Shown here: one piece after another, positions 6,821 to 10,153 of the stretch
Position numbering within the stretch: the stretch's first letter is position 1
How the letters are laid out: every line of letters starts with the position of its first letter
Origin: a virus
DNA: 10,175 nucleotides
Strand: one strand, 5' to 3'
Virus genome (UHGV): UHGV-0126067
The notes under the pieces: model-generated
Database searches by the model: none
The model's input: the letters and a program-made list of their open reading frames with translations, nothing else
Told to the model about the DNA's origin: nothing
Program-made: the position numbers and the translations under genes

Positions 6821-7078
6821 CTACTTCGTTTTTGCTTCCGCTCTTTTACGGCGGCGCTCTTCTTTCTTCTCGGCGTTTGCCATGTCCATGAATGCCTGCA
6901 TGATCGAGTTCCTCATCATGTAACTGACAAAGTGATGATTGACGCAGCCGTTGAGACGGAGTTGCTCGCCAAACTGATCAACCGAGGCCAGCACTTGCAT
7001 CATGTCCTTCTCGCCTTTCATGAACTCTGAGAAGTCGCGCCCTGCTCTGGAGGCGCATTCGATTACGCGATTACTCAT
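6821..7078 (-). CDS. Hypothetical 85-aa protein with basic C-terminal tail, translationally coupled to the upstream KilA-N ORF
   Basis: ATG 7078-7076 overlaps the TGA stop of the KilA-N ORF (ATGA). C-terminus is EKKEERRRKRAEAKTK. No family recognised. Confidence 0.5.
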   Translation of the reverse strand: MSNRVIECASRAGRDFSEFMKGEKDMMQVLASVDQFGEQLRLNGCVNHHFVSYMMRNSIMQAFMDMANAEKKEERRRKRAEAKTK

Positions 7079-7572
7079 CCCGGCAGCCCTGGGATCGTAA
7101 TCTGCAGCTGGTTAGCAAGGGTGTTAATCTCAGCGACCAATACAGGCTTCGTATAACGCCATGCAGCAAGTCCTTGTCCGCAGAAGCTCGCCATGTCCTT
7201 CTTCTGGTCAAACTCATGGCACTTCATGTTGAGCTGCGCACTTAAGCTGTTGCGATGCTGAAGCTCTCCGGTGAAGTAGTCATCGAGGACCTTATAGGCT
7301 GCGTACTTGAACCCGGGGTTTAGCCATGCCGCATAATCGTATGCAACAAACTTCCCGCCATAGGTTCCGCCGTGTACGCCGCGGGCAGTGAAAACCACAG
7401 ATTCGTGGTTTTTCTCCAGCTCGGCCAGGAACTCTTTGGTCTGCTTGTTTCGCAGATAATGGTAAGGCGATTCAGCATCACTTTTGCCACTGGCTTTCCA
7501 CATATCGGTGAGGCAGATCATGCCGTCTTCCCCGACACGGATTGGTTGATTGAAGAGGGTTAATGATTTCAT
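7075..7572 (-). CDS. KilA-N domain protein (165 aa)
   Basis: From ATG 7572 the N-terminus MKSLTLFNQPIRVGEDGMICLTDMWKASGK... fits the KilA-N pattern found in phage antirepressor/Bro-type proteins. AAGG lies about 11 nt upstream. The ORF-track start at 7626 is a TTG with no better support. Confidence 0.7.
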   Translation of the reverse strand: MKSLTLFNQPIRVGEDGMICLTDMWKASGKSDAESPYHYLRNKQTKEFLAELEKNHESVVFTARGVHGGTYGGKFVAYDYAAWLNPGFKYAAYKVLDDYFTGELQHRNSLSAQLNMKCHEFDQKKDMASFCGQGLAAWRYTKPVLVAEINTLANQLQITIPGLPG

Positions 7573-7719
7573 TTCGCTGATACCTTTTGGTGGTTGAGCC
7601 TGTTCTCGTAGATACGGGCAGCCCAAGAGCGGTCAGCGTTACCACTGCCCTATCTCAAGCTCTACCCCGAAAGGCTCTTGGTTGATATGCGCACGAGAAT
7701 GCGCGGGTTTACTGCGGGC

Positions 7720-7745
7720 ATAAAAAAGCCCCGCTATTGCGAGGC
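7720..7745 (-). terminator. Rho-independent terminator-like hairpin overlapping the Rz1 stop codon
   Basis: Minus strand reads GCCTCGC-AATA-GCGGGGC (7-bp stem with one G.U) followed by TTTTTTAT. Confidence 0.5.
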
Positions 7746-8057
7746 TCGTGATGATTCGATTTTCCTGATTGCCGCCTTATCCAGATTGCACTGCCCTAGC
7801 GCCGTATAGAGCTGAGCGTTCAACTCCAGACTTGCCTGCCACGTGAACGGAACCGCCATTCCGGGGATCGGCGTGTCTGCTGTCAGGTCAGCGCTTATCG
7901 GCACCACTGGGGATGGAACGTAAACTGTCTGCGTATTCCCGCAAGCTGTCAGCAGCGGCAGAAGGAACAAGCTGGTTAGCACACGGATCGCCTTCAAGCG
8001 CCTGCCTGATGTAGACAATGCGCGTCTCGCCTTTTTTGGCCAGTTCGTTCTTTGCAT
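7734..8057 (-). CDS. Rz1: Rz1-like o-spanin lipoprotein, overlapping the 3' half of Rz in another frame and extending past its stop
   Basis: Lipobox LLTAC-G preceded by a hydrophobic stretch (VLTSLFLLPLL). The mature part is proline-rich (VYVPSPVVPISADLTADTPIPGMAVP) and has no Asp at +2. Start is uncertain: ATG 8057 gives a long n-region; an internal TTG at 7997, preceded by AGGCAGG, gives a textbook signal peptide MKAIRVLTSLFLLPLLTAC. Confidence 0.65.
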   Translation of the reverse strand: MQRTNWPKKARRALSTSGRRLKAIRVLTSLFLLPLLTACGNTQTVYVPSPVVPISADLTADTPIPGMAVPFTWQASLELNAQLYTALGQCNLDKAAIRKIESSRASQ

Positions 8058-8274
8058 TCTGGGTAGCCTGTGAGATGTCGCGGATGAGGTTCATCGTGGT
8101 GATCACGTTTCTGGTGATCGCCTCCGATGTGTCTGCCCTGACCGTCGCCTTATCGCGCTGGTCTTTGTAGGTGATGGCGTTGTCGCGGTAGTGGTTTACG
8201 AATAAAACCAGCACGCCGATTAACGCCAGCACCAGCAACTGTAGCCAGTAACGCTTAACCAGCGCGCCAATCAC
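7888..8274 (-). CDS. Rz: Rz-like i-spanin (128 aa) with N-terminal transmembrane segment
   Basis: N-terminal TMD (WLQLLVLALIGVLVLFV) followed by VNHYRDNAITYKDQRDK, which closely matches my recollection of lambda Rz (VNHYRDNAITYKAQRDK). GTG start at 8274 overlaps the endolysin TGA stop (GTGA). Confidence 0.8.
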   Translation of the reverse strand: MIGALVKRYWLQLLVLALIGVLVLFVNHYRDNAITYKDQRDKATVRADTSEAITRNVITTMNLIRDISQATQNAKNELAKKGETRIVYIRQALEGDPCANQLVPSAAADSLREYADSLRSIPSGADKR

Positions 8275-9904: not shown

Positions 9905-10120
9905 AATGTGAGGGTAAGGCAATGTCGGCTCTCTGGCCGAAGGGTCCCAGGTAGTGGGTTTAGTTTGTGGTGGCCGGCGCTGCTATCCGGCATTCACGGC
10001 TATCGCTTTACGACGCCATCAGGACATTCACCACAACGAGGATCGCTTTGCCGTGCCAGGGAAATGTACCTGGTCTCACCGGGATGCCGTCACATACTCA
10101 AAGCGATTTCCGTTATGCAG

Positions 10121-10153
10121 AAATGAAAAAGCCACCGGCGTTAACCAGTGGCT
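10121..10153 (-). terminator. Rho-independent terminator, candidate late-operon tR'-like terminator
   Basis: Minus strand reads AGCCACTGG-TTAACG-CCGGTGGCT (9-bp stem with one G.U) followed by TTTTTCATTT. Confidence 0.65.

Follow-up and report, generated by a model that had tools for sequence, protein, structure and literature searches.

A pseudoknotted leader predicted to mask the Shine-Dalgarno sequence of a KilA-N gene behind the lysis terminator of the virus genome UHGV-0126067

Introduction

Genes of the KilA-N, Rha and ANT types are among the commonest phage genes with poorly understood function and regulation. One of them, coding for a KilA-N protein with an ORF11CD3 domain, lies directly behind the lysis cassette in the window analysed here, a stretch of 10,175 nucleotides (nt) of the virus genome UHGV-0126067 in which all the genes are on the minus strand. 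A first-pass annotation, made from the letters alone, had described the interval between the cassette and this gene (7573-7745) as a terminator-like hairpin followed by structured non-coding sequence, and had reasoned that a terminator inside a late operon implies either antitermination-dependent read-through or a separate regulation of the KilA-N module. The locus raises the question of how a gene placed behind a terminator comes to be expressed, and of what the structured segment in front of it does. We conclude, at a probability of roughly 0.6, that the interval joins the terminator at the 3' end of the lysis cassette to a cis-acting leader that controls the translation of the KilA-N gene on a Q-antiterminated late transcript. 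Judged from sequence comparison, the leader belongs to an apparently undescribed RNA family, with Shine-Dalgarno (SD) masking, a pseudoknot and covariation support, that precedes interchangeable accessory genes; the functional kind, SD-sequestering leaders on read-through transcripts, is already known.

Results

A Conserved Fold with the Shine-Dalgarno Sequence in Its Basal Helix

The segment of around 150 nt between the terminator and the KilA-N start codon at 7572 is non-coding, with no open reading frame (ORF) kept in relatives, and is strongly structured. The minus strand of 7750-7573 gave a folding energy of -68.9 kcal/mol, compared with -54.0 ± 4.2 when 200 dinucleotide shuffles were folded, none of which did as well (z = -3.55), in agreement with the approximately 145 nt of structured sequence described in the first-pass annotation, whereas the plus strand of the interval reached a z of only -2.15. 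As shown in Table 1, the fold begins with a small hairpin (P0), and downstream of it stands a long hairpin with a bulge, in which the order of the elements is an A-U-rich basal helix P1 (CCUUU:AAAGG), made of an anti-SD strand and the SD itself, then P1b, P2, a 3' bulge, P3 and an apical loop. The long hairpin alone amounts to between -33 and -42 kcal/mol for around 92 nt. When 27 distinct variants were folded, each one alone, all of them adopted this architecture: the basal helix contained the SD, and the bulge occupied the same position.

The same fold was recovered from alignments. RNAalifold on 36 sequences returned 42 pairs, 11 of them compensatory. A MAFFT alignment of 27 diverse sequences, made independently of the structure, had 80.7% of its cells paired, against 33-53% when the partners were slid, and none of 500 shuffles equalled it. 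This alignment served to build a covariance model, from which the pseudoknot pairing described below was left out, and the model found 104 matches in 94 sources that yielded 97 distinct rows (alignment A4). In A4 the paired cells rose to 84.3%, against 29-53% with the partners slid by 1-3 columns, and changes on both sides were present in 25 of the 35 pairs, including all seven pairs of P2 and all three of P1b; again none of 500 shuffles equalled any of these measures.

The SD is thus paired in a conserved helix that is upheld by covariation. The CCUUU:AAAGG pairing is present in 99% of the A4 cells, and in one variant (L203) it is replaced by a compensatory CCUA/UAGG, which argues that the pairing of the SD is itself under selection. 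The four core pairs of P0 are likewise paired in 99% of the 97 distinct sequences, but they are nearly invariant and carry little covariation information; the fifth pair changes from A:U to C:G in some classes. The weakest helix is P4, paired in 58% of the cells of the MAFFT alignment and built as GGU/ACC, GGC/GCC or GGU/GCC depending on the class, with a loop that varies in length and sequence. The upper stem measures 10-11 bp in every class, and the only semi-conserved elements across classes are the bulge (RYGNGAA), a GGG and the GGU/ACC of P4; the bulge is a possible hinge or recognition site. Cells with G-U pairs outnumber those with A-C (131 versus 65), which together with the better z-score of the minus strand points to an RNA of the gene-sense strand.

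In a nested model, opening the SD of the window leader costs 5.6 kcal/mol and opening positions -18 to +13 costs 7.4 kcal/mol; across variants these values range from 0.8 to 5.8 (mean 3.2) and from 3 to 14 kcal/mol, respectively.

A Pseudoknot with Matched Alleles

Just 5' of the anti-SD strand, the seven nucleotides CCAAGAG are complementary to CUCUUGG in the apical loop. As the strands follow each other in the order PK5', P3 5', PK3' and P3 3' (a-b-a'-b'), and both helices show covariation, this is a true pseudoknot. Counts in fixed columns gave 72-74% of paired cells, a figure that under-scores the pseudoknot because its register shifts by 1 nt between classes; for this reason, a register-free helix search was run on 48 distinct window pairs, with non-cognate and shuffled pairs as controls. 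The mean contiguous helix was 6.9 bp in cognate pairs, 4.7 bp in non-cognate pairs and 4.0 bp in shuffled ones, and the fraction with at least 7 bp fell from 81% to 10% and 1.7%.

At least 17 matched alleles were found, and both strands change together across classes. Besides CCAAGAG/CUCUUGG they include CGAGAG/CUCUCG, CCCGAG/CUCGGG, CACAGAA/UUCUGUG, CACAGAG/CUCUGUG, CUCAGAA/UUCUGAG, CCAAAGA/UCUUUGG, CCAUAGA/UCUAUGG, CCACCGA/UCGGUGG, ACCGAA/UUCGGU, AGAGAG/CUCUCU and CGUCGA/UCGACG. The linkers at both ends of the pseudoknot are of 0-2 nt in most classes, and the leader could be arranged as two stacks of similar length, P3 plus pseudoknot (around 18-19 bp) and P1 plus P1b plus P2 (around 19-21 bp), with the bulge at their junction. 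On this sequence evidence, no other tertiary feature of the leader is as well supported as the pseudoknot.

The nested complementary segments that had been noticed at first can now be placed in this fold. The inner one, GGGCAG/CTGCCC, corresponds to the top of P3 (7650-7645:7621-7616), which is kept by compensatory changes such as GGACGG/CUGUCC in HK97. The outer one, GAGCCT/AGGCTC (7677-7672:7601-7596), is indeed complementary, but both the minimum free energy (MFE) and the consensus folds pair 7602-7596 with a second copy, GAGCUUG, and 7677-7672 is split in the consensus, in such a way that its GAG belongs to the pseudoknot strand and its CCU to the anti-SD strand. In the class of phage P13374 the equivalent of the first copy pairs better (GAACCUU:AAGGUUC) and changes along with the pseudoknot and the 3' strand; the outer pair may therefore be an alternative conformer, on the strength of what is essentially one lineage-level change.

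A Terminator Upstream and No Promoter in Between

The hairpin with a T-run reported in the first-pass annotation is real and lies at 7747-7722, within a block of late genes on the same strand. The terminator scan of the minus strand gave a stem of nine pairs (six of them G-C), a loop of 4 nt and six T, that is, a GC-rich hairpin and a U-run at the end of a coding sequence, in the direction of transcription, with the TAG of the Rz1/LysC gene at the boundary between the loop and the 3' arm. The stem covaries in relatives, pair 15:28 being CG in 21 cases, GC in 12 and UA in 2, and pair 16:27 being GC in 20, AU in 10 and UA in 3. When sequences were fetched by an internal 14-mer, a retrieval that does not select for the terminator, the hairpin and the T-run were found just 5' of the leader in 36 of 36 distinct sequences.

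No sigma-70-like promoter was found from the terminator to the ATG, either in the window itself or in a set of 20 representative relatives, where the search was for sites of this type with at least 8 of 12 matches at a conserved position; the KilA-N gene must consequently be transcribed from upstream. In L035, a related contig with 100% identity to the window across this copy of the leader (copy A), a gene for a Q antiterminator (PF03589) lies upstream. From the lack of a promoter in the interval and the presence of this gene we infer a read-through by Q-modified polymerase, so that the first of the two alternatives raised by the first-pass annotation is the natural one for transcription, while the second, a separate regulation of the KilA-N gene, gains support from the post-transcriptional element predicted here.

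Distribution of the Leader and the Genes behind It

Megablast of 7900-7400 divided the region into three pieces with different partners: the spanin and terminator piece matched Enterobacter phage CobraSix, the KilA-N gene piece matched Shiga-toxin (Stx) and other coliphages, and the non-coding piece alone (7747-7581) was around 85% identical to HK75, mEpX1 and Erwinia phage Midgardsormr38. A more sensitive blast found the leader piece in 114 phage records, including HK97, HK022, HK446, Salmonella SPN3UB and Oslo, Klebsiella RAH1 and KP12, and Erwinia phiEt88, and its first 80 nt also matched phi80, epsilon34, Sf101 and the O104:H4 Stx phage P13374. The leader, of around 145 nt, was further found in prophages of Klebsiella, Erwinia and Pantoea. 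In the alignments the similarity spans from the terminator to the SD and stops at the ATG, past which the genes are unrelated.

Pattern scans were also run, two of them on IMG/VR (one independent of the hairpin sequence) and one on GTDB species genomes, and together they gave around 100 distinct versions of the leader in several diverged classes, all from Enterobacterales (Escherichia, Salmonella, Shigella, Klebsiella, Enterobacter, Citrobacter, Buttiauxella, Dryocola, Erwinia, Pantoea and Hafnia). The genes behind it code for KilA-N + ORF11CD3, KilA-N + P63C, Phage_pRha, pRha + ORF11CD3, ANT/KilAC, T5orf172/MUG113 and also HNH proteins. The P13374-type sequence alone had matches in 806 of 5426 complete E. 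coli genomes, where the median number of places was 2 and the highest 8, compared with only 25 genomes for the sequences of the window and HK97 types.

The leader was never annotated by RefSeq among the matches listed, where only neighbouring genes appear (Rz1-like LysC, Rha-family regulator). Rfam gave no match at E <= 10 in 7573-7750, and Rfam 15 none at E <= 1 on the leader in the phi80, epsilon34, P13374, mEpX1 and phiEt88 loci; C4 antisense RNA, IsrK, riboswitches and ribozymes are among the families covered. A search confined to the open-access literature returned no description of it, also when rha/IHF and leader sequence strings were used as queries.

Several observations were made on the genes and variants of the family. 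In 7075-7240 of the window and in related loci, KilA-N or Rha N-terminal domains share a C-terminal ORF11CD3 that ends in ...Q(I/V)xIPGL, which by sequence is a case of shuffled domains within the set of genes that follow the leader. A contig of Candidatus Pantoea bathycoeliae (L232, 166-258) has a reduced variant with the terminator, GCAGTAAA, P0 and a single 7-bp hairpin (AGAACCU/AGGUUCU), in which the SD is apparently free, and two full copies of the leader are present on the same contig. In the O104:H4 Stx2a phage P13374 (L126, 168-314), a copy precedes ant and this unit is inserted between endolysin and Rz, from which it follows that accessory cassettes bearing the leader can split the lysis cassette. 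In mEpX1 gp61 (L003, 2604-3407) and HK75 gp56 (L001, 2604-2975), the likelier start is the ATG past the shared SD (MSNIIPIDFEG...). GenBank places a GTG start inside the leader in both cases, but a longer protein was rejected as an explanation of the conservation, which ends at the common SD and ATG; the annotated N-termini of these two proteins are probably over-extended.

A Second Copy in the Window

A diverged copy of the leader (copy B) was detected by the covariance model upstream of the lysis cassette, before a gene for an HNH-endonuclease-like protein (Table 1). It adopts the same fold with the SD in the basal helix (MFE of -53.8 kcal/mol), and it has a terminator of its own on its 5' side. 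Copy B and the HNH-like gene (9877-9118) are missing from L035, in which this second terminator adjoins the holin region directly; the unit is consequently an insertion placed 8-9 nt past the T-run. The two contigs are otherwise 94-99% identical, and the insertion, of around 760 bp, corresponds to 2468-2471 of L035, at the site TTTCAG^(G)CTCCGGGAACC. Such a position suggests a mobile cassette, or terminators that act as insertion hot spots. Other genomes have two or three copies that differ in their pseudoknot allele, as in P13374, where one precedes ant and another a rha-like gene. The first reading of the interval as an intergenic structure was right in that it is structured, but it missed the conserved RNA family, the sequestration of the SD, the pseudoknot and this second copy (9875-9737).

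Candidates Rejected

Other functions were considered for the segment and discarded. A leader peptide is not supported, as the ATG after the T-run (7721-7719) opens only 19 codons and is replaced by ACG/ACA or followed by an immediate stop in relatives. A boxA/nut site or an HK022 put site was rejected because GCUCUU is present only in the window and HK97 classes, as a pseudoknot strand, being UUCUGUG, CUCGGG and others elsewhere, because the P0 loops are not GNRA-like, and because the leader lies in a late operon. By inspection, the bulge does not fit the tandem G-A consensus of a kink-turn consistently across classes, TATCAACCAAGAG lacks the TTR of the WATCAANNNNTTR consensus of an IHF site, and the GGA motifs of CsrA are not conserved. 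The bulge was also examined as an alternative partner of the anti-SD, but UUUUCG:CGAGAA pairs in the HK97 class only.

Discussion

In lambdoid late operons, Q-modified polymerase reads through terminators. In the window, late transcription by Q-modified RNA polymerase would presumably ignore the terminator behind Rz1/LysC, and unmodified polymerase would halt there, leaving the KilA-N gene silent in the lysogen. Once transcribed, the leader would fold into P0 and the long hairpin P1-P1b-P2-bulge-P3-apical loop, with a pseudoknot of 7 bp from the 5' flank to the apical loop, and binding of the 30S subunit would have to compete with the CCUUU:AAAGG helix, in such a way that translation of the accessory gene would be throttled or gated. 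The pseudoknot could act as a lock, holding two side-by-side stacks (P3 plus pseudoknot, and P1 plus P2) in a closed fold with the bulge as hinge, or as a timer, if pseudoknot and P3 formed first during transcription and stretched the anti-SD, giving a brief window for initiation. Its opening could be triggered by RNase III, by a protein or a ligand, or by temperature. The leader is reused in front of KilA-N, Rha, ANT, T5orf172 and HNH genes, often two to eight times per genome, and a different pseudoknot allele in each copy would avert mispairing between copies on one polycistronic RNA. Autoregulation by the product is disfavoured, because the downstream proteins are too diverse.

Several points weigh against this proposal. 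The low opening costs of the nested model may mean a modest repression, and they predict that translation is dampened, not blocked outright, unless the pseudoknot makes the fold more stable. Whether pseudoknot and P1 fit together in one fold may be a matter of three-dimensional geometry, and a plain hairpin would suffice to mask the SD, so that the conservation of the pseudoknot, the bulge and P0 suggests an extra function. Most of the loci were fetched by patterns taken from the leader itself, which biases the breadth of the family; A4 was fitted to the nested helices, and its pair percentages lean toward the model; many of the sequences are closely related, and cell counts overstate the number of independent events. 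Finally, no expression, structure-probing or reporter data on the leader were found in the searchable literature.

Part of this architecture would also suit a nuclease. If the leader were a site for RNase III, or for another nuclease, cleavage would part the anti-SD from the SD and either activate translation or set the stability of the mRNA. The lower stack of around 19-21 bp, the asymmetric 3' bulge of 6-7 nt and the upper stem of 10-11 bp are there in every class, with the sequence of the bulge kept at approximately RYGNGAA, and two-stack bulged hairpins of this sort resemble the T7 R and lambda N-leader RNase III sites. Such sites need no pseudoknot, however, and cleavage is compatible with translational control as its trigger, not as its replacement; as an explanation in its own right we consider it unlikely. 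Another reading is a ligand- or protein-responsive switch, in which the occupancy of an aptamer, or of a binding site for a host or phage factor, would decide the closure of P1 over the SD. A fold-back pseudoknot, an SD enclosed in P1, a bulge that is conserved and an invariant GGG beside the pseudoknot make up a riboswitch-like topology, and CCAAGAGCCUUU has three possible partners, namely the loop, 7601-7596 and the SD. Nevertheless, few unpaired nucleotides are kept across classes, the P4 loop being variable in length and sequence, a hairpin of -33 to -42 kcal/mol is unlike the marginal P1 of typical riboswitches, and the diversity of the downstream proteins speaks against a response to the product, all of which makes a switch of this kind rather improbable.

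The same basal helix could be taken for a thermometer, with the A-U-rich CCUUU:AAAGG, next to a mismatch, melting at host-body or stress temperature. A U-rich anti-SD placed on the SD at a frayed helix end, with opening costs of 0.8-5.8 kcal/mol, recalls the fourU elements and the alternative structures of lambda cIII; but thermometers are as a rule plain hairpins, the helices that back the SD (P1b and P2) are strong, and the pseudoknot, P0 and the conserved bulge would be left unexplained, so that we give this possibility very little weight. Equally little credit is due to the absence of an RNA function in cis, the interval being then a module boundary at the DNA level (a recombination linker or an insertion target for cassettes), with its apparent structure a mere side effect, or an independent or antisense small RNA. 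The homology does break exactly at both edges of the leader, the unit of leader and gene behaves as an insertion 8-9 nt past a terminator, and mosaic boundaries are typical of lambdoid phages. A DNA linker, on the other hand, would not be expected to have at least 17 matched pseudoknot alleles and 25 compensatory pairs, nor an excess of G-U over A-C in the sense orientation, and the anti-SD/SD logic ties the leader to the downstream gene; a free-standing small RNA is unlikely, as no terminator follows the structure on its 3' side and no promoter was found on the sense strand.

Translational control by an SD-masking leader has parallels in other phages and mobile elements. In the homing-endonuclease genes of T4 (I-TevI/II/III, segB, mobE), a hairpin at the ribosome-binding site (RBS) hides the SD on read-through transcripts (PMC2988022). 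These RBS hairpins are the closest analogue, as they likewise combine accessory or mobile genes of an operon with a stable RNA that hides the SD, and copy B precedes an HNH-like insertion. In T4, however, a late promoter within the hairpin gives short transcripts with a free RBS, whereas no sigma-70-like promoter was found in any class of our leader, and the T4 hairpins are simple, non-homologous and without the pseudoknot. Fold-back inhibition in IS10/Tn10 silences the read-through expression of the transposase through an upstream segment that pairs with the SD only on outside transcripts; by contrast with the leader, the inhibitory segment of IS10 is followed by a promoter of the element's own (pIN), and IS10 has neither a conserved multi-helix fold nor a pseudoknot. 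The RNase III site of the lambda N leader and the alternative structures of cIII are lambdoid leaders that limit initiation and are modulated by RNase III or temperature, but they belong to early operons, have different sequences and no pseudoknot, and showed no homology by Rfam or blast. In the 5' untranslated region of the maturation gene of MS2, a long-distance upstream pairing closes the SD and translation takes place only before the RNA reaches equilibrium. This kinetic control is a possible model for the role of the pseudoknot, although MS2 has an RNA genome and a different fold, which is not known to involve a loop-to-flank pseudoknot. IsrK has a short small-RNA isoform that acts in trans, and its locus lies upstream of lysis genes. 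It is an Rfam family without a match on the leader. The isrK-orf45-anrP locus of Gifsy-1 in Salmonella (PMC4825925) places a prophage antirepressor-type gene behind a translationally controlled leader.

A bolder version of our proposal, which we advance only tentatively, holds that the leader is an unrecognised class of pseudoknotted RNA of lambdoid, P22-like and HK97-like phages of Enterobacterales, Shiga-toxin phages included. It would be a true switch, set by RNase III, by a host protein, by a metabolite or by how fast the RNA folds during its transcription, that times the translation of KilA-N, Rha and ANT genes, as antirepressor-like regulators, and of selfish nuclease cassettes from the late transcript, with the pseudoknot alleles diversified for orthogonality between copies on one mRNA.

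On either version, many KilA-N, Rha and ANT genes of the classic model phages HK97, HK022, phi80 and epsilon34 and of Stx phages would share one dedicated RNA control element, and the leader offers a concrete target for mutations and reporters to learn when and why these genes are expressed; rha of phi80 and P22, for instance, is said to be harmful in IHF-deficient hosts. The leader would also explain errors in the annotation of start codons, such as the GTG starts in mEpX1 and HK75, and it represents a natural, reusable and apparently orthogonal RNA regulatory module, as well as a candidate for a new Rfam family.

Features of the Window and Additional Observations

The coordinates of all the features are collected in Table 1, where the order of the genes was assigned by Pfam.

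Table 1. Features of the terminator, the two leader copies and their neighbouring genes. Coordinates are those of the window and run in the 5' to 3' direction of the strand given.
Feature	Coordinates	Strand	Sequence, evidence or remark
Intrinsic terminator after Rz1/LysC	hairpin 7747-7726; T6 run 7727-7722	minus	GAGCCUCGC-AAUA-GCGGGGCUU; terminator scan, sequence, stem covariation
Conserved spacer, 5' edge of the leader module	7715-7707	minus	GCAGUAAAC; kept in almost every variant, independently of the sequence of the terminator
P0, small GC hairpin	7704-7689	minus	GCGCA-UUCUCG-UGCGC
PK5', pseudoknot 5' strand	7681-7675	minus	CCAAGAG; pairs with 7629-7623; directly adjoins the anti-SD strand
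Anti-SD, P1 5' strand	7674-7670	minus	CCUUU; pairs with AAAGG 7587-7583
P1b and P2 5' strands	P1b 7668-7664; P2 7662-7656	minus	GGGGU; GAGCUUG; MFE and consensus folds
P3 5' strand	7655-7645	minus	AGAUAGGGCAG; covariation U:A to C:G and G:C to A:U
P4 mini-stem in the apical loop, 3 bp	7643-7631	minus	GGU-AACGCUG-ACC
PK3', pseudoknot 3' strand	7629-7623	minus	CUCUUGG; 1 nt before the P3 3' strand
P3 3' strand	7621-7610	minus	CUGCCCGUAUCU
3' bulge at the P2/P3 junction	7609-7603	minus	ACGAGAA; 6-7 nt, purine-rich, consensus around RYGNGAA
P2 3' strand, P1b 3' strand and SD	P2 7602-7596; P1b 7594-7589; SD 7587-7583	minus	CAGGCUC (P2); AAAGG (SD)
KilA-N + ORF11CD3 gene, 165 aa, regulated gene	7572-7075; ATG 7572-7570	minus	Pfam, PHROG
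Second terminator, 5' of copy B	hairpin 9904-9888; T6 run 9887-9882	minus	GCCAGC-CUGUC-GCUGGC; also in L035
Leader copy B, diverged	9875-9735	minus	covariance-model match 9875-9737, 43.2 bits, E 5e-11, filters off
Parts of copy B	P0 9875-9860; PK5' 9850-9845; anti-SD around 9838-9832; PK3' 9792-9787; SD 9750-9746	minus	CGUCGA (PK5'); UCGACG (PK3'); AAAGG (SD)
HNH-endonuclease-like gene, 198 aa	9734-9138; ATG 9734-9732	minus	PHROG 953 'HNH endonuclease' at 1e-70
LydA-type holin	9015-8698	minus	Pfam
Phage lysozyme	8711-8271	minus	Pfam
Rz-like gene	8274-7888	minus	Pfam
Rz1/LysC gene, overlapping the Rz-like gene	ends 7734; stop TAG 7736-7734	minus	
Two small ORFs	7078-6821; 6717-6475	minus	
Small terminase (terS), P22 gp3 type	6445-5951	minus	Pfam
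Large terminase (terL)	5973-4477	minus	Pfam

The product of the KilA-N gene matched PF04383 at 3.6e-15 and PF10549 at 2.4e-13 in Pfam, and a 'transcriptional regulator' in PHROG. The Rz-like and Rz1/LysC genes (window 7734-8274) are overlapped and not embedded; LysC runs around 150 nt beyond the Rz stop.

ARAGORN found no tRNA or tmRNA genes in the window, in agreement with the first-pass remark that no tRNA-like features were found. In L035, a stretch between Q and the holin (around 2300-2390) resembles the 3' part of a tRNA (GGTTCGAGTCCGATCGCCCCACA). Another hairpin with a T-run lies at 10120-10150 of the window, on the minus strand (GCCACTGGTTAACGCCGGTGGCTTTTTCAT), with compensatory changes around 2135-2170 of L035 (GCCCGAGGTTAACGCCTTGGGCTTTTT), and may be tR', the terminator of the late leader behind Q.

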